From: Podarcis melisellensis
Lineage: Eukaryota
NCBI GenBank assembly: GCA_964234715.1
Contig: OZ174283.1
Length of the DNA: 64,000 nucleotides
Direction: 5' to 3' (one strand)
Below are positions 7,701 through 63,126 of this stretch, one piece after another. A program made the position numbers and the translations under genes. A model generated the notes under the pieces. That model saw nothing but the letters and a program-made list of their open reading frames with translations. It was not told where the DNA came from and ran no database searches. Positions within the stretch are counted from its first letter, which is position 1. Each line of letters opens with the position of its first letter.

Positions 7701-9231
7701 GCCATTCACAAGCGATGGCCATGCTTGTGTGAACAGTCAACCAGGCAGGCCTTTGCATTCCATATTTTCAGGACAACCACAGTGGGGTCAGCACCTTAAC
7801 TCTGAGTCTAGCTACTAAGTTTTTGCTTCCCCACACTGTCCCTGCATATATTTCATTGCCCGGACTCATTAAAATGTGAATGTCATTTCAAATCTAGAAT
7901 ACTAGTCACTTGCAATCTGTTTTGCCACACACAAATAAAAAGCCTTGCCCTTGAAATCCTGTGAGACTGAAAGCTTTTATTTTTTCCTGATAACAAGAGT
8001 AATTGGTGCCACCCATGGAACTCTCTGGGGAGACTTGTAGGGATAAGGGAAAAGATAAAACATTCTACTTAATAATAAAAAACATACTTGGAATGTAATG
8101 AAAAACACGATTATCACGGATACTGTACAGATAATTTACAACATAAGCAAAAATGTGTACATCATCTCTCTTTGTTGTTGTTTGGAACAAAATTTAAATA
8201 AACTGCATTTTCAAAGGAGTAATTGGTTACAGAGTGACAAGGAAGCACTTTTTCCCTTTTCTTCTCTTCATTTAATTGTGGGGAACTGCTGGGAAAGCGT
8301 AGGTGTCAATGTCTGCCTAACAACACTAGGGCATGATTCTAAAAACCTGCTTTTGCAGTGTCTGAGACTGCAAGGGTTAAAGTCCTTAATTTTGCCAGTT
8401 TTATTGACAGCCCCTTTGAATGTGAAAAGGCAGCATTATTTGGTGGAAAGGAGGAGATGGGATCAGAAACAGTACGAGGTTCCACTTTCAAATGAACTGT
8501 GCTGGGATGAAGCTCCAGACTGCTAACGTCCTCTCTGTGGTTAAGCATCATTAAAAAGAAGTCATGTCTGTGTGAAAGGCAGCAGCAGCAGTGGGAGGGA
8601 AGCTGGCTGAATACTCAGCAGCAGATTCCATTCCCATAGATATGGAAATAGAAAGAAAACATGACACAGGATGTTGTGGGCTACTCAGATGATTTGAGGC
8701 TGCTCAATTCACAGGACTGTGGGCTCTGGTCTTCTAATAATATGCACTTAGAATGTATTTATCAGGAAGTCCATTTTGCCAAAAACATGAGCTGCCAATC
8801 TGCTTCTGCTTGCCACTGTCATAATATTATGATATTATGACAGTTTGGAATGTATTCTGTATGTAGTAAAACAGATGCACACTAAGAAGCTTCTTACATT
8901 TGTGGGGGGCACACACACTATCAGTTTGTTGTTCTTCAGGAACAAAAACAATGGGTCTGGCCATTTCTACACCATTAGCAGGCAAGTTGCTGTCCCAGGA
9001 TCCCAGAAAGTATGGCTATTGACCAGGGATAGTAAGAGTTGTAGGTCAGCAGCATCTGAAGGACCAAATGTTCCCCACACTTGATGTAATGTACACTTCA
9101 TTCCATGTCCCTGCCCTATGCTTTCTTTTCCTTACTTTCCTATCTTGATCTGAAGGGGGTTACTTTGCTTGCAGTCAATACTATAGCTTGAGCACAACCC
9201 AGCAGCAAAGCATAATGTGCTGCTCTTCTTC

Positions 9232-9657
9232 TTGTTGTTGCTGTTTAGTCATTTAGTTGTGTCCGACTCTTCGTGACCCCATGGACCAGAGCACGCCAGG
9301 CACTTCTGTCTTCCACTGCCTCCCAGTTTGGTCAAACTCATGCTGGTAGCTTCGAGAACACTATCCAACCATCTTGTCCTCTGTTGTCCCCTTCTCCTTG
9401 TGCCCTCCATCTTTCCCAACATCAGGGTCTTTTCCAGGGAGTCTTCTCTTCTCATGAGGTGGCCAAAGTATTGGAGCCTCAGCTTCATGATCTGTCCTTC
9501 CAGTGAGCACTCAAGGCTGATTTCCTTAAGAATGGATAGGTTTGATCTTCTTGCAGTCTATGGGACTCTCAAGAGTCTCCTCCAGCACCATAATTCAAAA
9601 GCATCAATTCTTCGGTGATCAACCTTCTTTATGGTCCAGCTCTCACTTCCATACATC
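9232..9657 (-). mobile_element. BovB (RTE LINE) 5'-truncated 3' fragment
   Basis: ORF 9249-9488 reads KLRLQYFGHLMRREDSLEKTLMLGKMEGTRRRGQQRTRWLD, the BovB RT C-terminus. A (CAA)n-type tail lies at the left end. Confidence 0.95.
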
Positions 9658-29168: not shown

Positions 29169-29953
29169 GCAATGGTGCCCATCTGAGAGGTGCTGGAGCT
29201 GAGCTCCTGTGAGCACTGACTGAAGAAAAAAAAGCCCTGAATATGTATATATAATAAAGAAACCACTGTCTCTGCTGTGCCTTGTTCCCCCTGGAATCTC
29301 ACACTGCTCAGAGACAGGGATGGTGTACAACAGCAGGGTTGAAGGACTGTGCCAATTACAAATGCTGCTCTGGGGTAGAGGGCTGAGGATTATTAAAGTG
29401 AAAATTCTGTGACCTGTTTCACCAAAGAAAAAAATGAACCACCATGTTGAAGTAATGCAATCATCACTTTTTACCAGGACTGGTTCCAATGATATGCCAG
29501 TGGCTGAGCTATGCAAAAAGCCTCCTCATGAACAATGTAACTTCAGAAATCACAAGATTACAGCTATGATGTTGCATGTAGCATAAGACTAGACTTGGCA
29601 GAAGAACAGACTGCTTATATGAGCTGCTTGCTTAAGCAAGTGAGCTGATAGTTGTTCCAGATAAAGCATGTGAAGTATTTTAAAACTGTGGAAATGCTAG
29701 GATGAATGCTCCCAGATTGGCAACAGGATTGCACTTAATAATAATAATAATAATAAATTGTTTATACCCCAACCCATCTGGCTGGGGAAACTCAGTGGCC
29801 CCACCACTCCTCCTACGCTGATTCAGTATGACTACTGCAAGAGCCTATTTGTGTAGAATCTGAAAATGCAAATACACTGTAAGCACGATCAGTTATCCTG
29901 CACTTTTTAATTTTGGAGGTACACAGGCTTTTTCAGAACTTACACTAAGCAAG

Positions 29954-30395
29954 TGTCAGGTGCTGTTGCAGTTGCTCGTGAGTAAGCAAGCAGGACTCTG
30001 ACTTGTGTTTTACAGGCTTTATTTTGGTGCAAACTATTTACAGTGAAGAGCCCCGAGGCTCATGTCTGGCTCAATCGCTAGCAGAATTCGGGAGTGGTCT
30101 TTTTTTGTACCTCCTCCAACATAAAAGTTTTGTTACCCCCAACCGTTTCCGCCCCTCCCTGCGCCCAAGACTACTGTGCAGGATGGGCAATGGCAAGGGC
30201 GTGCTTCCCCCCTCTCCAGCTTGCTCAGGAGCAGCGTTAAGGCTCTCACTAGCATCCTCTGGTCCTTGAACTTCTTCCCCACTGGAGGTGGGGCTTTCCT
30301 CCTTTCCGGAAGAGGAGCTGCTTCGCAAGATTTTTGGAGGCTCCCTGTAACACAACTGCCCTTTACGCCTATGAGCCAATGGCAGTTTCCTGACA
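29954..30395 (-). mobile_element. Solo LTR copy A (probably Gypsy/Ty3), with open frame 30394-30071
   Basis: Ends TGTCAGG...CCTGACA; 5-bp TSD gcaag/acaag (one mismatch). Homologous to copies B and C. Confidence 0.85.
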
Positions 30396-31104
30396 ACAAG
30401 TAACAGTGAAGAGGTAACAGGGCTGATTCTCTTCCTCCCTGCACATCCTGCTTCCTCTGTTTACATACATACTGAAAACTAAAATACCACAATCGTACTG
30501 CCACTGCTACTACAACTACTACAAATAGCAGCATTATTATTATTAGACTGCCACTGTTTTACTGAGGCGGAGACGTGGCAGCTGAAGAGTGTATGGGATA
30601 TCACATTGATAAATGTGAAAGCCAGGCAACCTGGAAAGTCTGCTCAATCTGTTCACACTTGGCTGAGTTGCTGCAAGTACAAAATAAATAGCATTCTTCT
30701 AGAGCTGAGCTTGTGTGCTTGGACTAACAAATTTTGTTGGGCAGAAGAAAGGGCATACATTCAATAAACGCTTTCCAAACTCTTAATTCAGCTTTCTTAC
30801 TGCGACGCCAAGGCTGGTGCTGACACAACGATCACTAATGACCCCGCCACAGTCACAGTGTGACCATTTGAAATCTGGCTAATGACTATCGTAACAGCCA
30901 GGGTTCTGCTTGTGTACTGATAGGGTTTAATTTATTATGTGTCTCCTTGCACAAGATTGGAAATTGTACCTGAAAATTATGGAGGAAGGCAAATTCTTTG
31001 CTGTCACGAAATATCAGGAAAAAGTTGACCAATTGGACCTGGGGATACAGTTCTCCGTTAGTTCCCGCATTGTGTTGGAGCTGATAAGCAGACCTGAAAA
31101 TTAA

Positions 31105-31396
31105 TTTGTAAAAATCACTGCCACAGGATGGGGTAATGGCCACGACCTTAGATGACTTTAAAGGGGGGTTAGAGAAATTCATGGGGAACAGGTCTATCCA
31201 CTGCTATCAGCCATGAGAGCTAAACAGAACCTCAGAAGTAGCCTGCCACTGAAGACTAGTTGCTAGGTAACAGACAATGAGGGACAGCTATTGCTTTCAT
31301 GGTCTCCTAGAAGCATTTAGCTAGCCAGTGGGAGAAAAAAGGATGCTAGACTAGGTGAACCTTCAGCTGATTCAGCAGGTCTCTTCTAGCATTCTT
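31105..31396 (+). mobile_element. CR1 LINE 3' end
   Basis: tcactgccacaggatgg..atggccac...gactttaaaggggggttagagaaattcatgg (SLPQD..MAT..DDFKGGLEKFM) followed by the CR1 3' UTR. Confidence 0.8.
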
Positions 31397-32929
31397 GCCT
31401 CTGGTTTAAGACACATTACCATTATTTATTCAGGTGATTTTGTGTGAGATTAGGGTTGGAATCTATCAGTTTTAGTACTATCTGTTTCACATTTCCCCAG
31501 TCTTAAATTCAATTCCCCCATTATTTCACATCAGTTTGTACTTTTAAAAAGTCATCATGAAAATTAAACAGCATTTCAATGGAAATTTCTCCTTAATAAA
31601 CACATTTTTGTATGCCGTTTTGATTAATATACACATTTTTGCAAGCAATTTCCCCTAATGGATGCACTGCCACTGAGTGCCAGTTCCCATACAACACCCC
31701 CAATTTCACCCAAGTTTACTCCTTCCATGAAAAGATCCCAGTAAGTTTTAACAAGAATGACAAAAATGTTTCCAACAACACGTTTGTGAGATCTGAATGA
31801 CCCATATTGAGACCCTCATCTTGAAGCACCACTAATGAAGGAGAGTTTTCCTAAATGTACAACCACTTTCTTCCATGCAGGCAAGGAAGATGAACTGTGA
31901 CAAATGAATATGTCACCTACAGGGAGTAATTGGAAAAAATTCTCTGTGCAGGAGGGAAGCAGGTAACTTGCATGTCAAGTACACTTGCTGAAATCGCCTC
32001 TTCTGAACAACTATTATTGCTGCAGGAACCCTGTCCTCATTTTTCAGCTGGCCACCCTAGAAGCAGAATAATATGTATTCATAAATGTACATTCCCCCCA
32101 GCATATACTATTTCATAATCTATCACTGTATACCTCCTGTGTCTACAAAAACAGCCAATTGATTTTAAAGTTATCTCAAACTCTTTTTTTAATCCAATAC
32201 TGCTACCCCAGCAAAAGCACTGCTTCACTGAATGACCCAGGTCAATTCAATTAGTCTCCTGACAATGGATTCATTCTCCAGTTCCTGTAAAACTGGAAGG
32301 GAAAAAAGGAACAAATCACTGTAAATAAGATGCTTTATCGCAGATAAGCTGTCCTGAGTGTATATAAAATTTAAGATACCTTTTATGTCCACAGTACTGT
32401 TGTTTACTTTGGGGAAGTAATAAAATTCAGGGCTTGTTTAATCATAAAGAAACCACACCAGGAAAGCTCCAGAGCACAACTCTGCTGATAAAGAGATTGG
32501 AAATTAAAATAGAAGAGGTCAGGATCTGCACCACAGGTTGGCAACCTGAGGCCCTAAAGCTGCATGCATCCATCAGCCTAATTTTATGCAGCCCTCCTTG
32601 GCTTAATTTCAAAAGTTATCTGTTTCAAGCAATCAGTTCAGGGAGATCTGAATTGAGCAATTTGTCCCTCCCTTCTCAGACTACTGGGCTGGAGGAAGAG
32701 AGGGTAAGAGAAGGGCGTGGAAAAGAGATTTTAAAAAGAGGTGTTGGAAAGAGTAAGGCAGGCAGGGTGGCAGGAGCAGCTTGCTCCCATCTCTCTATCA
32801 TGAGACAAAGGTATTTGAGAGCGGAAGCAGTAAAGGAGTCTAGAAATGTTGTGAAATGCTGAAAAGCTGCAGAATCATTTAGCATGCTGAATCACTGTGA
32901 CTCATCTTGTATCTGCTTGCAGGCAGGCT

Positions 32930-32932
<3 letters not shown>

Positions 32933-32962
<30 letters not shown>
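32933..32962. repeat. (GT)n microsatellite, inside a possible LTR remnant (~32700-33185)
   Basis: Repeat seen directly. Downstream AGTAAA and a terminal ...gataACA are LTR-like, but no 5' end or TSD was found. Confidence 0.8.
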
Positions 32963-32969
<7 letters not shown>

Positions 32970-33765
32970 AGAGCCTGTGGTCTGTGAGGCCTGTGCTCAA
33001 TGGTGACTCTGTGTGACTCAATAACTCTGTGTATGCTCCGAAGCTAGTTTAATTTTCTGTTCACTATGCTGTTATTTGCAAACAAGTTTATTTTAACTCA
33101 GTAAAAGTTTTATGCTTTTACTAAAGAAGACTCTGTTATTAATTTATGTTATGCATCACTCTTTAGATAAGAGATGTTGATAACAGTCTTGACATTGAAT
33201 GGGCAAACGAGGGAGGGACTCACAAGGAACACCACCATCACCCCAAAACCTGGAGCCAACACTGAGGACAGTCAATCATAACACAGCCACTGTTTATGCA
33301 GGAGCAGTTCCTATTGTGAGGCTTCCATTTTCTTCTCAACCTTCCCTCCATCACATTTCAGGATTTATTCTCCCCACCACCACCCTGTTTTAGATAGCCT
33401 TGCTCATGCCCTCTCTCATGTTGAGAAATGTTTCTGTTGCAGTCTTCCCTCTGCTGCTTGCACAGTCTTTCCTCTCTGGGTTTGGTGTGTGCTTGATGCC
33501 TCCCTCTTTCCATCTCTAAATTTTGATTGCTGACTCTGTAATTCACAAAGGTCTGCTCCAACATCTGCTCAGTATAAATCACAACAGCCTGCCCAAACAC
33601 CAGTATGAATATTATATGAAGCATGAGGCAGTAAAGCATGAAAACTACAAATCACTCAGAATCTGTCAATAATTTTAGTCTCAGGGATCCAGCCAGGGAG
33701 AGGCATTCAGAGCTAGTCTGTGGAGCTGTAGCCAGATTTGCAAATAAACATTGTGTTAAGCATCA

Positions 33766-33828
<63 letters not shown>
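33766..33828. repeat. (TTA)n microsatellite
   Basis: Direct inspection; explains the poly-Leu ORF 33638-33877. Confidence 0.95.
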
Positions 33829-34532
33829 TACCTTTCCTGAGCAAATTTGCCTTTCTTTGGTCACCTCAGTGCATTGAAAGGTCACTATCCTGCTGGTACA
33901 GATGGTAAAATATCAAGTATTGCATGGTATTTTGGGTTCCAAAAAGAGTTGGAAACAAGTGAGAATGTTAAAAACCTTTACTGGCTAGACCTCTGTGGTG
34001 TAGTCCACATTGCAGAATTTGCTAGTGCTTCTATTACATTTCATCAGGGAATACATTGTAGTGGATTACAAAAGTTTCTTGAAACCCGTTATAAGGCATT
34101 TTTGTGTGTGCTTTTAGTGCTTTTGAAGCTTAAAATGTATTATTCAGCCTGGACTCCTGCCTCTTTTCCTGACAATGTTCTAGCCCAGGTATGGGAACAT
34201 GTAGCACTCCAGATGTTCAGACCACAACTACTAGCATTCCTGACCTCTGGACATACTGGACAATTTTGATCCAAATGGAAACAGGAGCAAAAAGTGCTGA
34301 TTTTCACTTATCTGTTCCATGTCTGGAATGGAAATCAATCCAAGATGGGATCCAGTTGTTGTTACTTTTAGTCTGCAAATGTTACGTAATTGATTGCAAT
34401 CTGCCTCCTCCCAGCTTTGCATTTTGTTTCCTTTACACTGAAATGAATGGGGTGGAATAACATAATAACAATTAATTACATAAAATGCATGTTACATAAT
34501 TGCATCATGGTGGACAGCTAGATGAGTAACAC

Positions 34533-34652
34533 AGGGTGATAGTCAACTAAGTTTTACTCAGAGTAGACCTAGTGAAATTAGTGGATATCAATAAGTTAGG
34601 TTAATTAATGTCAGTAGGTCTACTCTCGAGTGATACTTGTTTGAATACCACC
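34533..34652. mobile_element. Short palindromic MITE
   Basis: Arms actcagagtagaccta / taggtctactctcgagt. A second copy lies at about 52629-52740. Confidence 0.6.
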
Positions 34653-34655
34653 AAT

Positions 34656-34659
<4 letters not shown>

Positions 34660-34702
<43 letters not shown>
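34660..34702. repeat. (TA)n microsatellite
   Basis: Direct inspection. Confidence 0.95.
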
Positions 34703-34708
<6 letters not shown>

Positions 34709-35059
34709 AAAACTGCCATGAATTGGAAGCAGTGCTGCATGTGGTGAATATAAAGAAGAATGAAAAGTGATGCGTTCTTACATCCCTAATGGAAGTTCGG
34801 ACATTTGGTGGGTCAGAGGTTCTCTGTTCTCATTCTGGTTCCTTATTAATTTGCGAGATTTATACCATGCCCTTCAATAAAATTATCAGAGCAGCTTTCT
34901 ATCTTTCCTTCAAATGCATCATGGAGAGAGGGACCAGCTCATACCCACTGGCTCTTGCCCACCAGTATCTGTGTGTTCAGCAAGACATTAGAAGAGCTCT
35001 ATATGAATAGGCATTTCATGCAATCAGGAGCTCTATTTGTTAATTCTGGATATATATTC

Positions 35060-35955
35060 TTGCTAAATAATCACAATACCCCCTAGGTAAGATCACACAA
35101 TGACCGCTCCCCGCTTAAAACGGGGGGCGCCCTTTGCGTGGACGCGTGCAGCCCCTAGATCTGGAGCGGCTCCAATAGCATAGGCTTGGCTTTGCCTTCC
35201 CTCAGGTGGGATACCTGGAGGTCTCCACCTACCTCAGTCAGTTGTCCAATCCCACCTGGGGGAAGCGTTGCCAAGGAGACCAGGCCAGGTAGGGGAGGGA
35301 TTACCTGCCCATACAATAGAGGGAGGATCTTACCTGGAAATCCTCACTTGGCTCCAGAGCTTCTCCCACCCTACCCACCCTCAGTTAATGTCTTATTTTG
35401 CAGGTTAACTTTTCTTCACAGGTTTTGCAGGTTAACTTTTCTTCACAGGTGTGCGGGCGCTGCTACGTTAAGGTCACTGTTAAAGGGCCGGAAAGGAATT
35501 TCCCTGCATTGGCAGGTTTCGCCTTTCCCGTAGCAAAACGTCACAACTTTGGCGGTATCAGACCTTGGGCGGAATCCTTTAGTCCATCTTCCTCTTTGTG
35601 GCGGCGATACCAGGGTTCCCCGTTAAAGGGGTTTTCTGAAGAGAGGCTTTGACCATACGCCGAAAGGTCGTCATTGCTCTCCCCTGCCTCGTAACGGGGG
35701 CGGCTATCTCTGCTTGAACATATGTTCTCCAGAGCCGGCCCATCCCCCCCACACACACTGGATAACCCTGATGCTCCCTAGGTCCCCGGCTGGGGACTGG
35801 GGAGGGAGAACGCTCAATGCCTGAGCCAAGGTCTACCCACATTTGAAATTTAATAAAGTTGTGGCCAATTTAATCCCATAGCACGTTGTCTTGAGTCGTT
35901 ATTCCACATGACGAGGGGACCGCGCGGGATCTGGGGACTCCGCCTGTCCATGCAA
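35060..35955 (+). mobile_element. Young CpG-rich element, DIRS/Ngaro-like terminal or non-autonomous fragment
   Basis: Sharp GC/CpG island bounded by TTGC...GCAA. Internal TTGCGTGGAC...agatc (35134-35160) is complementary to the right terminus. AATAAAgttgtggcc lies near the 3' end; no clear TSD. Confidence 0.5.
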
Positions 35956-36049
35956 TTTGATTTTTATAAGTTCAGAAATTTAGCAAACTAAGTCTCCAGT
36001 ATGGTTTATAATAAATTTTAGATGATCACTATATATGTATTTAGATGAA

Positions 36050-36105
36050 TATATACATATACATACATACATACATACATACATTCCATATATATATGTA
36101 TGTAT

Positions 36106-36154
<49 letters not shown>

Positions 36155-36156
36155 AA
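36050..36156. repeat. Compound (TACA)n/(TA)n microsatellite
   Basis: Direct inspection. Confidence 0.9.
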
Positions 36157-37011
36157 CAAACATTCAGAAATAATATGTAAGTGCAGAGCCTAATTTTCTC
36201 TCTCTCATTCTTCGGACTGAAATTACCTGTGTTTGTTTTCCTCTAGACATTACAGGAAGTGAATGGGTTTTTCATTAACTCCATCTGGCTTGCAGATGTC
36301 ATTTATGGTTACAGCCAAAAATATGTCTCTCTAAAATCTGCTATCAGGATACTTAGTCATTTTTACAACTGGTCCAGAAAATTCCTGCATACATTGGTGA
36401 TGTTCTTTTTTCTCTTCATTTCTCATGGAAAGTTGTTTTGATGACTTATCCTTCCTTTCTGCTGCAAGTTCACTGATGATATAAGAAAGAAGTCAGGTGG
36501 GGAAGACCATTAAAGGTACTGCTGAACTTTGCATGAATGCATACTGAGGCCATAATAAAAATATTGTGTTAGAACAGGCTAAAACAAAGGTAAAACTCAA
36601 TAATTGTAAGATCTCTTGTGATGGATCTAATTTCTGCAAAACGGATTCAGCAGCCTTGCTTGATGCAAAAATCATCTTTGGGCTGAACATCAGTTATTCA
36701 GCAGCCCTAGATTTGCACTTGGTGTAAAATTAATCATAGCACTGAAAAAAGTTACTGTATTCATAGCCATGCAGTCCTACTGGTTAATGTTCTCAGATTA
36801 GAAAACAGAAAGTTTTCTAAGATGTAGGCTTCACCCTCTCACCTTTCAGACTTGTTGTTTTCCACCAAGGTCTAGCTGCTGAAATTTGAACAAGAACATT
36901 TGGCCTTGCAGTGGAGAAGAATTAATAGTGCACCTACCATTACCTGGTATTTTCATGTGGCATTGGTTCTACCTCTTTCTTTCTGGAAACCTAACTATGA
37001 TTGTTGGTAAC

Positions 37012-37465
37012 TGTCAGGGAACTGCCATCGGCTCAGGGAGGAGAGGGGAAAAGCCGGATGGATTACAGAGAGCCCCCAAAGATCGTGGGAAGCAGCACCT
37101 CCTCAGCAGAGGAGAGTAACCACGCCTCCAATGGAGAGGAGCTTCAGGGCTCAGAGGAGGTGAGGTGGTGCCAGGACACCTTGCCTGAGCAAAGTGGGGA
37201 GGAGAGAGGTCCTCCGTTACCCACGCCCTCCCTGCGCAGTAGGCTTCCGTGCCAAGAGGGGAAGTGCAGATTGGGCATCAAGAAACTACTCTGCTGGGGA
37301 AGGTTTAAGGACCGCCCACTCTCAGATTCTGCCAGTGAATGAGCAAGCCACGGAATAGAGGTGCTCTGCATGGTGAAGGGTTTTTGGCATCAATAACAAG
37401 GCTTTACAGCTGACCAAGGAGGCATTTGCCTGATTGCTCTCGAGTAGCCCCCTGATATCATTACA
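37012..37465 (+). mobile_element. Solo LTR copy B, with open frame 37013-37342
   Basis: TGTCAGG...CATTACA with a perfect 5-bp TSD GTAAC (37007-37011 / 37466-37470). Confidence 0.9.
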
Positions 37466-37649
37466 GTAACTGATAAGAGAGTGCTCCATCTGAGAGTTCG
37501 ACATGTTTGGAGTATCTGGGTTTGTCAGCTTAGCAGGCAGAAAAAAGCAGCAAATAGCCAGACAATGACAGGCAAGGAGTGGAACTGGAAGACAGATCTG
37601 TGTTGAAGTTAGACACAACATCTCAATATACTGCAGTTTGAGGGCAGGA

Positions 37650-37925
37650 AACATAAGCTGCCTTATATTGAGTTAGACTATCAGTTCTGACTACACCAGT
37701 AGCAGCTGAGGTGGTGCCCTCCAAATGTTATTGGACTACAACTCTCATCACCCCCAGCTTTTAGCCATGTTGGTTGGGGCTCATGGAAGCTGGAGTACAA
37801 CATCTGTAGGGTATCACAACATCTTCCCCTGACAGTGACTCTCCAAGATTTCAAACAAAGTTCTTCTTCTGCCAGGCCTACCTGGAGATTCCAGATCTTT
37901 TGCATGCAGATCTGCTATGGGCTCT
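37650..37925 (-). mobile_element. Squam3-like SINE interrupted by a hairpin MITE (~37705-37830)
   Basis: Tail ggaaacataagctgccttatattgagttagac and head ttttgcatgcagatctgcta flank a ccctccaaatgtt..ggactacaact...gagtacaacatctg hairpin. Confidence 0.55.
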
Positions 37926-39654
37926 GGGTCTGTCCATTTTGGAGGAGAAACAAAGAAAGAGGAAGGACTGTTCACATGACCACTGAGAGAGTGGCAACAA
38001 CATTCTGTATGTGTCAGCTTCTAGTGTTTGTTTTGTATGCTGAGGAGGGAACCAATTGGGAGAAAATTTTGAAGTATATTGAATCTTCAGGATGAACAAG
38101 TTATAGATTTCCAGAAATCAATTAACCATTACTTTCCAGGTATTAATGCAGCATTATCAACACACCACCACCAATTGTATAAAAGCAAATCAGCTTTTCA
38201 TGCTCCTCTCCCCAAGCTGGGCTGCAGCATTCACTTTTCTAATTCATCTTTATATAGTCATCTAGAATTCACAGCCTTGCACTGTAAGTTAGCAAGTCTT
38301 GGTTGCTTGGTAACACAATCCTCTCAGTGATTTGTTACAGACAAAGCTCTGATGGGGAAAGCACTGAATATTTTGAGTCCATCCTTGCACAGCAGTTTAA
38401 TATCCAAATGCTCTGTTTGCACATTGATAGGTTGCTACCTCTAAAATCACACATGTAAATCTGAATGTCGCCATCCAAATTACTTTTATGGAAGGTACAA
38501 ATACATTGGAAATGTGAATTTTTGAAAATTCAGCCCTTTCTATAAACAGGTAATTAATGATCCTTAGAATTTATGTATTTTAATCTGTAAAGAATCATCC
38601 TTTTGGATCTAATGCCTGGAAAAAAAGTGTCTGTGTATAGCTTGCACACTGTGCCGTAAATGTTTTGTTGCCAGCAAATAGAGCCAGCCATCCAAGCACA
38701 ACTTTACAGATTGGATGGCTTCTGAATAATCAAGATTATCTTTTATGCTCTGCCAATATGTGTTTGCACATGTAAATAAACTACAGTGGCAGTCAATGAG
38801 CACCACAGGAGTGTATGAACGCAGTCCTAAAGATAAGATTAAACAGACACAAATGGCCAAACACAACACAACAAGCACTCCTGTCAAATTATTAAATAAC
38901 TAATTCATTAAGCCACACAGCCAAGCTGAGAAGCTGGCTATTTGTGTGTGTAGTCTCAGTGTGGTTTGGATAATTGGGACCAGCTGTAATACAGTTTTGG
39001 TTTTGGAAGGAATCCAACATTACTTGAAGGCGACATGGCTATACGGATATTGACTGCAAAGTGGACCGTGCGTGTGTAGGGCTGAGTTCAAGCTGCCTTT
39101 CCACATGCAGTTTTTTTTTGAGATGACTCAAGCACTGACCAGCTTGTCGAACAATCACAAACCAGCTGCAGCAGGCTGGAACCAGAATAGATTGGTGCAA
39201 GCAAATCATTTTAACTCCTTCAAACAATTCTTCTTTTGTGAACAGGCTTCATCCCACCAAAATCTCTATGCTTAGTTTCTAAAGGATTCTTTCAAATCTA
39301 AAAGGGGTTCATTACAAACATAAAAGAAAGACGAGATGATATGCACAACATTTCCAATTGTTTGTTTTTAATCAGATGTTTTTGTATGCCTCCCATTGCA
39401 TTTTCATAATTCAAACCCTTTTCTTTTCCTGGTGAGAGAGATTCTGTGGTGGAGAAATGCTACTTGTTTTAGCTAAGCCAGGACAGAAGGTGCATGTGTG
39501 TGTGGAGGGTTCGACTTTCATGGCTTTTTTCTTTCTCTTGCACTGACCCCAAACAAACAAGGAAACAAACGAACAATTAGCAGTATAGCACAATTTGCAG
39601 AACTTTGATTTGTTTGATGCCTGTCCTCAAAATACTGGGGATAGAAAGAACACA

Positions 39655-39825
39655 GAAACACAGGAAGCTGCCTTAAACAAAGATCACTAATATATTGGTC
39701 TGCACTGCACAGCAGTGTCTTCCCCAGGTTTCAAACTATGGACACTGCCAGCCCTACCTGGAGGGGCTGGGGGTTGAAACTGGGACCTTCTGCATGCAAG
39801 GCAAGTGTTCCACCCTAGAGCAATT
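39655..39825 (-). mobile_element. tRNA-derived SINE (Squam3-like)
   Basis: caggaagctgcctta tail, antisense B-box ggggttgaaactgggacc, and tgttccaccctagagc A-box region. Confidence 0.65.
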
Positions 39826-39959
39826 ACTCTTCTCCTGGAGAATAGTTAAAGTGTCCAAAAACACATTAGCTTTTCAGCTTTCACTGGATACATATTAGCA
39901 ACTACTGGCTCTCCAATGCATTGATGGAGGCATGGGGAGGCAATGAAGTAGGTGTATCC

Positions 39960-40410
39960 CATAGCTGCTGTTGCCTCATCTTTCAGAATAATTTGATGAA
40001 TAGGAGAAGTAGAGGCCACACATTGATGATGTCACATACCGACTCTCCTGGTGATCCCACTTGAAAGTCTGATGTAGATACTTACAAATATCAGGGGCCT
40101 TGAGGAACATAACAGTGTATAGTCCTTCAGAACACCATTGCAGGGTTGCTATGGACAAAGTTAAAAAGTTTCCATCACCACTTTCTGGAAACGACTATGA
40201 AAATAAGAACAGAAGGCATCTGGTTCCTCTTCCAGAAATCTTGTCCAAAAGTATACAATGGTTAATAATATCAAATGCTGTGAAGAGGTTCAGAATTATT
40301 GCCCCAGGAGAAGGACCCAGTCATGACGTTCTTCTCTTAGTGTTCATCAGGAGAACCAAGGCCAAACATAGGCCTGAAATCAAACTGAAATTGATCTGGT
40401 AGTCCCATAA
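39960..40410 (-). mobile_element. Old L2 LINE RT remnant
   Basis: Minus translation gives LNLFTAFDI (from LDLSAAFDT), RFQKVVM, a decayed GVPQGS region and HQC..LYFS (from HQYADDTQLY). Confidence 0.7.
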
Positions 40411-41286
40411 TTGTAGAAATACCATTATAAATTTCTGATATGGGAGAGGCATTTTCCTGGAGAAATGAGTCTGTATCTACTCAGGTGGATTCATCAAAGG
40501 GCATGTAATCACCAACTTATGCGAATTAAATAGCCACCTTTTAGGAACTACTGTTTAATCAAAAGGTTGTGTTTCCCTCATTACATGCTACATTAACCAT
40601 ATTTGAAAGAAACGACACACAAAAATCCATTGGAGAAAATGGTATCTAGACTATATATCCTGCTCTTGCTGCTAGGCTTGGACAAAAGCTTCCAGGGTTT
40701 AGAACTATAGCTGTTACCATGGCATGGTACAAATGCCCCTGTTCCCTTTCGTAAGAAATTGTAAGATACTAACAGTTTGCCCAATGTGAGAAGTGAAATG
40801 GCAATACACGCTGCACAGCACTGTCATATTAGGAGGACATTTCCTATGTCATGCTGAGCTCAAACGTGAAATGAGCATCCTCATCACTTGATTCAGCATA
40901 TGCCTCAGGATTTTCCATTTCCTTCAACCAATGCCAATATCCTTGCCAGCTGTCCTAACCCCTAAGTCACAATGGAGTAAACCTGTTTCAGCCATTTTGT
41001 GTTGTTTTTGAGTTGTGAATATTGTTTTAGAGACTGTTCAGACAACATAGGGGAGTCCAAAATTCAGCCCACAAAACTGGGCCTTAAGAAGAAACTGAAA
41101 CCTAAGGATAATAGGAACAGAACTATATGGGTTTTCTGAATGGCTGGTAGGCTAGATGGGGGAGTAGAAATGATGTATATAAATGAGGCAGATGAGTAAA
41201 GTGGGCATTGTTGTGGGAAGAAGTTGTAATTTGAAGAAAAGATGCAAAATTTGATCTTTTCTGAGTCACCGAAAATGGAAATGTAG

Positions 41287-41721
41287 TGTCAGGGAACTGA
41301 CATCGGAGCCAGAAGTGGAGGCAGGGCTCCCAAGCGATGCCGGAGAAGGGCCAAGCAGGGAGAGAGGGGACTCAGCAGCTGGGGAAGGAAATCAGCGTAA
41401 CACCAGGGATAAAGGGGGGCGGATGGGGAAATCGGAGAGAGGGCTCCAGGACTCTTCACTGGAGACCAGCGGGGAGAGCACAGTTCCTCCGCTACCCACA
41501 CCCACCCTGCGCAGAAGACTTCCGCGCAGGGGAAGTAGGCGTAGATTAGGCATCAAAGAACTTCTTTGATGGAAGAAGTTCAAGAAACGCCCACTGACGG
41601 ATTCTGCTAGCGACTGAACAGCCACGAAGTGAAGGGCTGTCCAGCCAGGAAAGGTTTAACCAGGCTACCTAGCCAGGAGTGGCGGCAACTTACACACGAG
41701 CAACCCCATATAACCATTACA
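41287..41721 (+). mobile_element. Solo LTR copy C, with frame 41288-41617 (one internal TGA at 41567-41569)
   Basis: TGTCAGG...CATTACA with a perfect 5-bp TSD TGTAG (41282-41286 / 41722-41726). Confidence 0.9.
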
Positions 41722-50314: not shown

Positions 50315-50361
50315 AGTGCTTTCTTCCCTAAAAAAATGTTTAAGGGGTACTCTCATTTTCC
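50315..50361. mobile_element. Truncated MITE left end
   Basis: cagtgctttcttccctaaaaaaatgtttaaggggtactctcattttcc resembles a lacertid CAGTGCTTT-terminal MITE (from recall). It is cut off by BovB. Confidence 0.45.
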
Positions 50362-51241
50362 TGTTGTTGTTGTTAAGTCATTTAGTTGTGTCCGACTCTT
50401 CGTGACCCATGGACCAGAGCACATCAGGCACCCCTGTCCTCCACTGCCTCCCGCAGTTTGGTCAAACTCATGCTGGTAGCTTCAAGAACACTATCCAACC
50501 ATCTCATCCTCTGTCGTCCCCTTCTCCTTGTGCCCTCCATCTTTCCCAACATCAGGGGCTTTTCCAGGGAGTCTTCTCTTCTCATTAGGTGGCCAAAGTA
50601 TTGGAGTCTCAGCTTCAGGATCTGTCCTTCCAGTGAGCACTCAGGGCTGATTTCCTGAAGAATGGATACGTTTGATCTTCTTGCAGTCCATGGGACTCTC
50701 AAGAGTCTCTTCCAGCACCATAATTCAAAAGCATCAATTCTTCAGCGATCAGCCTTCTTTATGGTCCAGCTCTCACTTCCATACATCACTACTGGGAAAA
50801 CCATAGCTTTTACTATACGGACCTTTGTTGGCAAGGTGATGTCTCTACTTTTTAAGATGCTGTCTAGGTTTGTCATTGCTTTTCTCCCAAGAAGCAGGTG
50901 TCTTTTAATTTCGTGGCTGCTGTCACCATCTGCAGTGATCATGGAGCCCAAGAAAGTAAAATCTCTCACTGCCCCCATTTCTTCCCCTTCTATCTGCCAG
51001 GAGTGGGACCAATGGCCACGATGTTTTTTGTTTGTTTGTTTTTTTGATGTTGAGCTTCAAACCATATTTTGCGCTCTCCTCTTTCACCCTCATTAAAAGG
51101 TTCTTTAATTCCTCCTCACTTTCTGCGATTAAGGTTGTGTCATCTGCGTATCAGAGTTTGTTTATATTTCTTCCGGCAATCTTAATTCCGGCTAGGGATT
51201 CATCCAGCCCAGCCTTTCGCATGATGAATTCTGCATATAAG
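50362..51241 (-). mobile_element. BovB (RTE LINE) 880-bp 3' fragment, pseudogenised
   Basis: Same-frame ORFs read DFTFLGSMITADGDSSHEIKRHLLLGRKAMTNLDSILKSRDITLPTKVRIVKAMVFPVVMYGSESWTIKKADR* ... LRLQYFGHLMRREDSLEK. The YAE/YAD RT region lies at about 51130-51240, and there is a (CAA)n tail. Confidence 0.97.
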
Positions 51242-53856: not shown

Positions 53857-54108
53857 CAGGGCTCAGCAACCTTTTTCAGCTGTGGGCCGGTCCACCATCC
53901 CTCAGACCATGTGGTGGGTCGGACTATATTTGGGGGGGGGAAATATGAACAAATTCCTATGCCCCACAAATAACCCAGAGATGCATTCTAAATAAAAGTA
54001 CAAATTCTACTCATGTAAAAACATGCTGATTCCCGGACCATGCACGGGCTGGATTGAGAAGGTGATTGGGCCGCATCTGGCTCCCAGGCCTTAGGTTGCC
54101 TACCCCTG
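53857..54108 (+). mobile_element. hAT (Charlie-like) MITE nested in an older hairpin MITE
   Basis: CAGGG...CCCTG termini with a perfect 8-bp TSD GTATAGAC (53849-53856 / 54109-54116). Confidence 0.9.
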
Positions 54109-56299
54109 GTATAGACTGTAACTTTGATCAGCCCCAAGGGGACACCATTTGGAGGACACCAGCTTGGGTAAGACTGGAGTAGACCATGTGGATAGCTGCA
54201 GGATGGAAACAAAGGGCATCAAGTTACTGACTAGTTCCCAAAAGTGAAGTGAGATGCCTTCCGTACATGTTCCATAACTCCTATTGCATTGACATACTGC
54301 ATCCTGTACAACAAGGGTGGGGAACCCCAGACCCAGGGACAAAAAGTGGCCCTTCCCTCTATCTGGCCCTCAAGATTCTCCCCATGCCACACACCCCTCT
54401 CCAGACAGAGGAGAAGGGCTTTCCTGGCTTTTCCACCAGTGGATGGGGTTGGCAGTGTGGTAGGCGCTGGCTTGCAAGGGAGGAAGCCTCACACGGAGGT
54501 CTTTCATGTCTATCTGCTGTCTCCGGATATAATTGGATTTCATGTCCCATTATCCTTAGGAAGTATGCATGGTGATCAGGGAATATGGGATTTGTAGCCC
54601 CAAACCATATGCAGGGCCATAGGTTCCCCATCTCTCTTCTGGAGAAACCCACTAGCTTTTCTTCCGTTGAAATCCGACTTTCTGATTCTGGGCACAAAAA
54701 GGCTTGTTGATCATCACAAAAGGATAAAAGTATATAGAATAAGAGTAGTCAGCAAGGACCATATAACTGAAGGCCTATAGTCCCCTTGTCTCAGGGTGTG
54801 AAAACTTGGCAGACAAAAAAGTGCTGCTCATCAATTGGATGATGTTGCACCAGTTTAGCAGGGAACTTGCACATCCTCTTATGCAGCCCTGTACACAATG
54901 TTGCCAAATGTTGAAAAGATGAATAGCAGCCTTTATGGAGAATTCAAGTGAGAGGGGCTTATGAAGTACAATGTTCATTTTCAGAGACAGCCTAGTTCTG
55001 ACAACCAGATGCTAGAGAGGAATTATAGGGAAAGGATGTCTTCATCATGCCTCCTTTGTGGACCTAGTTGGGACATCTTGTTGGCCCCTGTCAATGGATA
55101 ATCCTTAGAAAATGTAATATCTCTTGAACAGAAGTGTTACCTTGAAGGAAGACATCTGGACTCTCTGCAACAAAGGGAGTAACAGTTGCATATTTATTGC
55201 ATTAAAAGAAACAGAAATTTGTTGGGGAAAGCTCCTCTGGGTTGAAAATGTGAAGGAGTGTTGATTATTTTTTCACCTGTGAATATATGTCACTTATTCA
55301 GTTTGTAGCCAGGAACTGAGAGATGCAGCAAAGCAGAACACATTTCAGGGAAAGGAAGGGGTGAAAGAGAATATCTGTTGTTGACATCTGTCTGTCTCAA
55401 GAGACAATGAAAGAGTGCACCTTTGGCAGTAAAGTTGGAGAGTAACAGTGCCTGCTGTGGCTGTGGAGATTGATATGGGAGAGTGATATGAAGGTGACCG
55501 GTTTTCCTGCTAAAGCTGCACCATGACATTTCTTCTCTTTGTGCTCCTCCCAACAGTCATTCCTTCTCTAATCATTGCTGTGGATGGATACATGAACAGA
55601 GTGATTGTCTCCAGACATTGCAGTCATCTACAAGGGATTTTCATACAATGGGCTTAATGTTACCAATTTTCACATCACATTTGCAGACATCTTTGTAATG
55701 CACAATTGGTCTGCCAACAGGCTTAGTGCCTCTCTGCAGAGCACGTCTTTGGGGATCCTGCTATCTTCCATTCTGGGTACATGATCAAGCCAACATAGAG
55801 CAACAGGGAGATGAATATGCCAAAGACAGCTGGAGCAAGAACACAGTCCTGTTTCACACTGATCTTTATAGGGAAGACATCTGAGGATGAACTGTCATAC
55901 TAGACAGAGCAATGCATGGGCTCGAGGAAGGACATGGAGCATAGGTGGGCATCCTATCTTGTTAAGCAATGTGAAAAGTCATTTTTGGCTCACAAGGTCA
56001 GACATCTTCATCAGGACTTAGTTGAACATATCCAGGAGCCCAATTCAGGCATTCAGCCTACTCATTTGATTCTGAATAACCTTGCTCTGAATCTGACAGG
56101 AGGGAAGTATGGTGGCTCCTCATTGCAGTGCTCATGGAGGAGAGTGTGCAATGGAACAGTGACGCAATGCAGTGGGTGGGACTAGACAATACATCCCTGC
56201 CTTCCTCATGGGTTTTAGTGTCACATGAGTAAACTGAATGCCAAATAGAACTAGGGTCATCCAAAGAACCTGATTGGTGGGAGACAAAATGAATTACCT

Positions 56300-56532
56300 C
56301 ATGGGTAGGGAAACTAAGGCACAGGGGCTGGATCTGGTCCAATCGCCTTCTAAATCTGGCCCATGGATGGTCCGGGAATCAGTGTGTTTTTACATGAGTA
56401 GAATGTGTCCTTTTATTTAAAATGCATCTCTAGAATTCGTTCAATTTTTTTCCTTCAAAATATAGTCTGGCCCCCCCAAAGGTCTGAGGGACAGTAGACT
56501 GGCCCCCTGCTGAAAAAGGTTGCTGACCCGTG
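56300..56532 (-). mobile_element. hAT MITE, same family as 53857-54108, inverted
   Basis: Reverse-complement homology (gggaatcag.gtgtttttacatgagtagaat, ggtctgaggga, gctgaaaaaggttgctga) and a perfect 8-bp TSD AATTACCT (56292-56299 / 56533-56540). Confidence 0.9.
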
Positions 56533-62990: not shown

Positions 62991-63126
62991 CAAGCATGGC
63001 CAAACTTGGCCCTCCAGATGTTTTGGGACTACAACTCCCATCATCCCTAGCTAACAGGACCAGTGGTCAGGGATGATAGTAGTTGTAGTCCCAAAACATC
63101 TGGAGGGCCAAGTTTGGCCATGCCTG
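62991..63126. mobile_element. Near-perfect hairpin hAT MITE
   Basis: 58-bp arms (62991-63048 / 63069-63126) with about 3 mismatches and a perfect 8-bp TSD GCATAGTA. Decayed relatives lie near 9000-9085, 34185-34260, 37705-37830, 53050-53105 and 59700-59820. Confidence 0.92.

Follow-up and report, generated by a model that had tools for sequence, protein, structure and literature searches.

We examined a 64-kb stretch of the Podarcis melisellensis genome (64,000 nucleotides; NCBI GenBank assembly GCA_964234715.1, contig OZ174283.1), hereafter the window, in which three long terminal repeats (LTRs) carry a conserved protein-coding frame. The three LTRs, which belong to subfamilies A, B and C, are dead solo LTRs of a self-priming Ty3/Gypsy chromovirus. 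We are all but certain that the frame is the end of pol, which continues via the polypurine tract across the predicted U3 of the 3′ LTR. The features of the window are as follows, with target-site duplication abbreviated as TSD:

29954..30395, minus strand: solo LTR, subfamily A, 442 bp, TG...CA ends
29949-29953 and 30396-30400: TSD of copy A, 4/5 matching (GCAAG/ACAAG on the plus strand)
30071..30394, minus strand: pol/integrase end inside the LTR, copy A, 107 codons plus TGA, open, without a start codon
30074..30202, minus strand: constrained 43-codon motif, copy A
30085..30095, minus strand: predicted self-primer 11-mer, copy A (likely R start), complement of the A-type primer-binding site
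37012..37465, plus strand: solo LTR, subfamily B, 454 bp, TSD GTAAC
37013..37342, plus strand: pol/integrase end inside the LTR, copy B, 109 codons plus TGA, open
37211..37339, plus strand: constrained 43-codon motif, copy B
37318..37328, plus strand: predicted self-primer 11-mer, copy B
41287..41721, plus strand: solo LTR, subfamily C, 435 bp, TSD TGTAG
41288..41617, plus strand: pol/integrase end inside the LTR, copy C, 109 codons plus TGA
41486..41614, plus strand: constrained 43-codon motif, copy C
41567-41569: premature TGA, copy C, codon 94 of the frame
41593..41603, plus strand: predicted self-primer 11-mer, copy C

A preliminary description made from these letters had placed three solo LTRs of 442, 454 and 435 bp here, and all three lie where it put them, with TG...CA ends. 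The frame it reported was likewise recovered: it runs from LTR base 2 to an aligned TGA after 324, 330 and 330 nt (A, B and C, respectively), open in A and B and interrupted in C by a single stop, the TGA at codon 94. Two of its statements held in part. Different 5-bp TSDs are perfect for B and C and match at only four of five positions for A. The frame was said to lack an ATG start; no ATG is common to the three copies, since in-frame ATGs occur at different codons in B (codon 16) and C (codon 46) and A has none. A frame length of 330 nt is the commonest in each subfamily (12/29, 9/28 and 22/30 copies), and the 324-nt frame of copy A is a private 6-nt deletion. A recount of the motif gave exactly the figures reported for B and C, 28 of 43 residues alike with 11 synonymous differences; A and B share 25/43 residues and A and C 24/43, with 12 of the shared codons synonymously different in each pair. 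No internal sequence of the element was found within the window, which identifies the copies as solo LTRs. Their clustering is at most mild (Poisson P ∼0.006 for three copies per 64 kb, from a lower-bound density of candidates).

A motif search of the 1.57-Gb genome returned ∼8,600–8,800 first-look candidates, which are not copy counts; there are thus thousands of candidate copies of the chromovirus in this genome, and solo LTR copies were found on every large contig. Full-length elements with paired LTRs, whose recovery had been proposed as a check, are also present: 11 elements of 5.1–6.1 kb have paired TG...CA LTRs that are 86.5%–98.2% identical, seven of them with a perfect 5-bp TSD. The encoded order is Gag with a CCHC knuckle, reverse transcriptase (RT), RNase H, integrase, an SH3_Tf2-1 (GPF) module and a chromodomain. 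Pfam recognized RVT_1, RT_RNaseH, Integrase_H2C2 and rve in Gypsy order in L111, and SH3_Tf2-1 and Chromo scored above the Pfam cut-off in L111, L113 and L066. The closest named proteins are from Podarcis (74%–92% identity among the ten best named matches), and the ends of the LTRs agree with the Sushi motifs given in the cited portion of PMC3601003.

The copies with internal sequence show where the frame in the LTR comes from. In L113, a run of 682 codons is unbroken: it begins at the integrase zinc finger, includes Integrase_H2C2, rve, SH3_Tf2-1 and Chromo, all above Pfam cut-offs, and closes at the motif's stop. L051, L066, L070 and L074 are open from SH3 through to the same stop. The pol order in internal copies is integrase, SH3, chromodomain, acidic linker, polypurine tract, and then the LTR from base 2 to the TGA. 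The polypurine tract itself codes for Gly/Glu-rich residues, the junction reads Asp-Val, and ∼220 residues follow the chromodomain in the window's family, 109 of them inside the LTR. A stop just upstream of the LTR had been named as a finding that would speak against such continuity; none lies between integrase and tail in unbroken copies. The proposal that the motif forms the C-terminal end of pol/integrase in an LTR retrotransposon of lizards is therefore borne out, and the frame of copy A is read as a pol end because of frame continuity in its relatives. By eye, the linker between chromodomain and LTR seemingly holds two copies of an acidic-Phe-x-Gly-Phe motif in the L066/L113 family and one copy in the D and F families introduced below (linkers compared: L066, L113 and P0006).

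Two observations count against an uninterrupted frame. Among 30 copies chosen by SH3–chromodomain similarity, the LTR junction is present in 28; of these, 15 have LTR base 2 in the reading phase of SH3 and 13 have it out of phase. The commonest SH3-to-LTR spacing, 644 nt, is in phase; since most of the out-of-phase junctions differ from it by 1–4 nt, we read them as post-insertion indels, as expected in decaying copies. In subfamily A, the link between chromodomain and LTR was seen only in the A-like L054, with a one-base shift; a purine tract preceding an A-like LTR in L328 gives this subfamily further support.

A second, predicted function overlaps the end of the frame. No tRNA-type primer site was found after the 5′ LTR. 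The sequence at that position complements an 11-mer around LTR base 307 that coincides with the frame's last codons. The primer-binding site was present after the 5′ LTR at 17 of 42 loci, with 11/11 pairing in 12 and 10/11 in five (one spurious match in the 3′ flank of L034 was dropped). B-type and C-type elements differ by three compensatory changes in the primer/site pairing. For subfamily A, the site was predicted from LTR sequence only; it then turned up twice, each time behind an A-like LTR end, and the mismatched combination that served as a control (A-like LTR ends with B/C-type sites) was not found. Judged by sequence, the 11-mer and its complementary site are the signature of Tf1/Sushi self-priming, as outlined in the portions cited of PMC4600332 and PMC6317226. 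The self-primer's position makes it likely that transcription starts at the frame's end, so that the frame would extend across the predicted U3.

This overlap raises the alternative that what is conserved are DNA or RNA signals (promoter, start and self-primer), with the open frame only a tolerated read-through. The self-primer does sit on the last codons, the stop is no more than ∼10 codons away from it in A/B/C as well as in D and E, and short read-through seemingly occurs in Xenopus P0041 and stickleback P0062 (inferred from the protein only). We compared codons among 90 loci found with the non-coding 3′ LTR part of each subfamily, thereby avoiding choice by protein likeness; the 87 with a whole LTR were kept (L162, L201 and L209, whose 5′ part is missing, were dropped). 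The ratio of non-synonymous to synonymous divergence (dN/dS) between subfamilies over the last 43 codons was 0.16, 0.18 and 0.21, far below 1, which answers a check proposed in the preliminary description. The two other forward frames gave 0.83–1.79, and the only frame to echo the signal was the reverse-strand mirror frame (0.23–0.39), which has the same third positions. Column-wise differences at codon positions 1/2/3 numbered 30/14/65. The ratio of non-synonymous to synonymous polymorphism (pN/pS) remained 0.26 with the primer codons left out (P 0.006–0.04), and more than 100 codons are open in five families of this genome whose sequences are otherwise unalignable. The excess of third- over second-position changes, the restriction of low dN/dS to this frame and its mirror, and the persistence of the signal outside the primer all argue against conservation at the DNA or RNA level, a reading that is highly improbable and that these observations have already largely refuted.

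The age of the variants tells where selection acted. Variants seen in at least three copies had a pN/pS of 0.26 and private variants one of 0.76, the latter inside the range of a post-stop control (0.71–0.99); private variants differed from between-subfamily differences with a Fisher P of 0.002–0.009. The protein was constrained during element replication, and the solo LTRs are now decaying neutrally: as private changes are near neutral, selection acted on the source elements and not on the solo LTRs. The purifying selection claimed for the motif thus belongs to the source elements, not to the copies in the window. On the other side of the ledger, the dN/dS test covers no more than three subfamilies, and since the three pairwise comparisons are not independent of one another, the P values are indicative. 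The linker (codons 1–66) has a pN/pS of 0.57–0.91, not significant, so that constraint on it is weak or absent.

Could the frame instead encode an accessory protein of its own, as HIV nef and MMTV sag do, expressed by splicing or from an internal start, or do solo LTRs serve as host exons? The in-frame ATGs of copies B and C would suit the former. P0001 (UniRef A0A670JKR6), a Podarcis muralis gene model for a phospholipid-transporting (P4-) ATPase that ends in a C-type tail, would suit the latter. However, no ATG is common to the three subfamilies, unbroken copies run from integrase to tail without a stop, and solo copies decay neutrally. With a predicted start at the frame's end, the LTR's own promoter would not transcribe the frame, and P0001 is a single automatic model whose tail is either an annotation artefact or an exonisation. 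We consider both versions very unlikely; the accessory frame that the preliminary description had offered as an option is not needed, pol frame continuity being sufficient. Thousands of solo LTRs hold such an open frame, which gene predictors can splice onto host genes (P0001). A B-type solo LTR also follows an ANF_receptor (vomeronasal-type) exon in frame (L035:470-1729, minus strand, and also L050), forming a 420-codon open frame; this fusion is probably due to chance, but it is a source of false gene models.

Podarcis proteins led to four sister families, D–G, also present in this genome, with integrase identities to L113 of 64% (D), 57% (E), 69% (F) and 62% (G). Same-phase read-through past the junction extends for 102 codons in D, 205–232 in E, 103 in F and 115 in G; the LTR boundary was confirmed by paired LTRs for D and E and rests on one copy each plus the junction sequence for F and G. 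We placed these families in a tree of 38 rows, midpoint-rooted and without a clade test, from which the short row B_L034 was dropped. The window's family, D, E, F, G and the protein P0006 formed one group of 13 rows (support 99/97), and two Anolis proteins fell outside it. The window's family grouped with vertebrate chromovirus proteins (support 97/96) in this tree, which is without named Sushi or Amn sequences. In relatives the protein usually stops a short distance past the chromodomain, at a median of 42 residues (71 of 128 proteins with the motif; 34 residues in Anolis P0016), and some seemingly run a short way into the LTR. Family E (L306–L313) includes copies whose frames are unbroken over 1,526–1,569 codons, and its paired LTRs reach 99.9% identity, from which we conclude that it expanded not long ago. 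In this family the stop codon lies next to the predicted self-primer or overlaps it, and the central Trp is missing from the chromodomain as well.

The sister tails are otherwise unalignable, and each ends in a basic patch and a Trp. The tails of F (LFCWKR), G (FHCWKK) and P0006 (LLCWKR) have in common a hydrophobic-hydrophobic-Cys-Trp-Lys-basic core. A tail profile scored 21.2 bits for F and 8.5 bits for D, with 0/300 shuffles as high, and the last 60 residues held 12–19 Lys/Arg in all seven tails checked. The chromodomain upstream has changed as well. The window's family, P0006, D, E and F have other residues in place of the first and third cage aromatics; family G keeps both, as do the Anolis, Xenopus and fish proteins that were compared. 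Of the 70 proteins scored, 56 have both aromatics, and of the 14 that do not, 11 come from these families. The window's family accordingly lacks the first and third aromatics that mark a group I chromodomain, with its three-residue aromatic cage. Loss of the cage is not required as a trigger for the tail, since family G has both tail and cage.

We searched for what the terminal peptide might be. The tail had no match in Pfam and no usable match or cluster in the ESM Atlas, and its sole solved-structure match, CKS2 (E 0.68–0.77), was treated as noise. A tail profile run against 1.84 billion representatives found three matches, all of them versions of this tail; word-indexed searches found only one and two, which is weak evidence of absence. 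That the motif was not recognizable is thus in keeping with annotated domains, none of which matches it. The AlphaFold2 model of the tail alone shows no fold apart from a single helix of 12 residues that spans the Cys-Trp core (predicted template modelling score, pTM, 0.23). In context, SH3 and chromodomain were folded and the remaining 200 residues were not, with a predicted local distance difference test (pLDDT) score <50 over most of the tail; the alignments behind these models were shallow (19 and 10 rows). Neither model is the confident globular one expected of an independent folded domain. The word "domain" used earlier is therefore too strong for one short helix in a disordered tail, and the models favour the reading of a short linear motif carried at the end of a long spacer.

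A classical bipartite nuclear localization signal (NLS) consists of two basic residues, a 10-residue spacer, and a stretch in which three of five residues are basic. This pattern is present in 23 of 30 open A/B/C copies, among them all seven open A copies and 15 of the 17 open C copies. As a whole explanation, we lean slightly toward a pol-end tail that acts as a likely nuclear-import and chromatin-tethering signal. The import or tethering role of the terminal peptide, taken by itself and argued from analogy, seems to us evenly balanced. In this model, the transcript would start near LTR base 307, where the 11-mer would prime reverse transcription. The genomic RNA would then contain the 3′ LTR copy of U3 with the stop codon, to be translated as the end of Pol, and the tail would remain on integrase after protease processing. 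The acidic linker would be a flexible spacer, and the terminal peptide, with its basic patch, short amphipathic Cys-Trp helix and acidic Ser-rich end, would bind a partner supplied by the host, for example a chromatin protein or an import receptor, in the manner of the CR motif or the Ty1 integrase C-terminus (both discussed below). LTR–LTR recombination would leave the tail behind without a start.

Several results sit poorly with this model. The strict bipartite spacing occurs in only one of six open B copies, and the tails of F, D and P0006 are without the pattern (only the 10-residue spacer was scored), which together weaken a strict bipartite NLS as a conserved feature. The likeness of the G and E tails was seen by eye, and they are not clearly above shuffles (13/300 and 18–34/300, respectively). 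P0122 and P0123 retain LLCW and have lost the second basic cluster. Solo copies are dispersed and no insertion preference was found, so that targeting to special sites is without direct support; no tRNA gene lay within ∼1.5 kb of any of the 90 loci. The base composition of the 58 perfect TSDs of the 90 loci (L161–L250) is uneven, with G/C at position 1 in 42/58 and at position 5 in 45/58, and A/T at position 3 in 40/58.

Ty3-type integrase C-termini can affect cDNA synthesis. The main rival is a tail that acts inside the particle, binding the element's own RNA or cDNA or aiding Pol packaging, processing or reverse transcription, with no host partner. A high Lys/Arg content common to all tails, in which exact NLS spacing is not, fits such a role, as does the want of an insertion bias. 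Yet the hydrophobic Cys-Trp core found in four families resembles a protein-binding motif more than a nucleic-acid patch, and the degenerate chromodomain cage of most tail families leaves room for another chromatin contact. We judge the particle-internal role unlikely. The tethering model has a bolder form, which we put forward tentatively and hold to be rather doubtful: a squamate chromovirus clade would have made its whole U3 coding, and a new tethering peptide, for which a host partner is predicted, would have replaced the cage-less chromodomain. If true, this would be a vertebrate repeat of the path taken by the plant centromeric CR motif.

The genomic setting of the family offered some further observations. 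About 113 of the 150 best SH3–chromodomain matches (hand count) are on contig C19, which makes up 2.5% of the assembly, and many of them are identical copies within larger repeats. Most of the matches outside C19 are within a few Mb of contig ends, and solo LTRs are everywhere. It is a guess that C19 is a non-recombining (W-like) chromosome. A gamma-like endogenous retrovirus at G000:C11:52122865-52134599 (L031, L256 and L257) has two 2.24-kb terminal repeats that are 99.6% identical, and matches Gag_p30, RVP, RVT_1, RNase_H, rve, MLVIN_C and TLV_coat in Pfam. Each of its terminal repeats contains a B-type chromovirus solo LTR, 88% identical to copy B of the window; probably a single insertion of the solo LTR into one retroviral LTR was later copied to both ends. 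Other repeats of the window are an interspersed repeat of more than 300 bp, with two copies 95% identical (9223-9623 and 50352-50753), a hairpin element with 58-bp arms (62991-63126), and long inverted arms 2.2 kb apart (53857-56532).

HIV nef and MMTV sag are separate genes that overlap U3. Coding over the predicted U3 is alike here, although it takes the form of an uninterrupted pol end and not of a separate gene. A closer parallel is the Tf1/Sushi group, the V-clade vertebrate chromoviruses (Sushi-ichi and Amn), as grouped in the cited portions of PMC6317226 and PMC2774666. The predicted self-priming is like that of the Tf1/Sushi group, with 10–11/11 pairing and compensatory changes across subfamilies. 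The ∼220 residues after the chromodomain compare with a median of 42 in relatives, and most tail-bearing families no longer have the cage aromatics at the first and third positions.

Read-through of pol into the 3′ LTR is itself already in print for plant chromoviruses. In the portions of PMC3059260 and PMC3605345 that we cite, a CR motif is encoded in the 3′ LTR of CRM group A elements, and PMC3605345 further describes beet Bingo elements, in which the frame extends into the LTR together with an ordinary group II chromodomain. The read-through is common to CRM group A and the family described here. In CRM elements, however, the CR motif stands in the chromodomain's place and goes with a centromeric location, whereas here the chromodomain is retained upstream of the tail and solo copies are dispersed in a vertebrate host. 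The likeness to the CR motif is one of position and make-up and not of direct sequence comparison, the tail being without a Pfam match. The papers searched, a set outside which lie most subscription papers and the repeat databases, contained no description of read-through in a vertebrate chromovirus or of this peptide. The portions cited of PMC11011659 (Henriques et al.) and PMC2774666 (Llorens et al.) do not mention read-through in vertebrate Metaviridae. The general design being known from plants, the surprise is limited. Cage-less chromodomains, which the cited part of PMC3605345 (2013) described as plant-only, are a second noteworthy point.

The family thus carries at its integrase end a conserved, uncatalogued peptide whose DNA is predicted to be also promoter and, terminally, self-primer. 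The Ty1 integrase, according to the passages of PMC7459421 cited here, ends in a C-terminal bipartite NLS with an embedded AC40-binding targeting domain, and Ty5 has a targeting hexapeptide. With Ty1 the likeness is a functional analogy only: a long integrase tail finishes in a short peptide that is basic and has a conserved hydrophobic linker. A Trp residue sought in the Ty1 linker was not found in that paper. Ty1 differs in being a Ty1/Copia element, in its 29-residue linker and in a tail that is not LTR-encoded according to the same passages; the loci examined here, moreover, have no association with tRNA genes. According to the cited portions, entry into the nucleus and the site of insertion depend on integrase tails at this position in the Ty1, Ty5 and CRM elements, and that of Ty1 can be transferred to another element (PMC7459421). 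By comparison with these systems, a new integrase tail would be a small handle on how vertebrate chromoviruses find chromatin.

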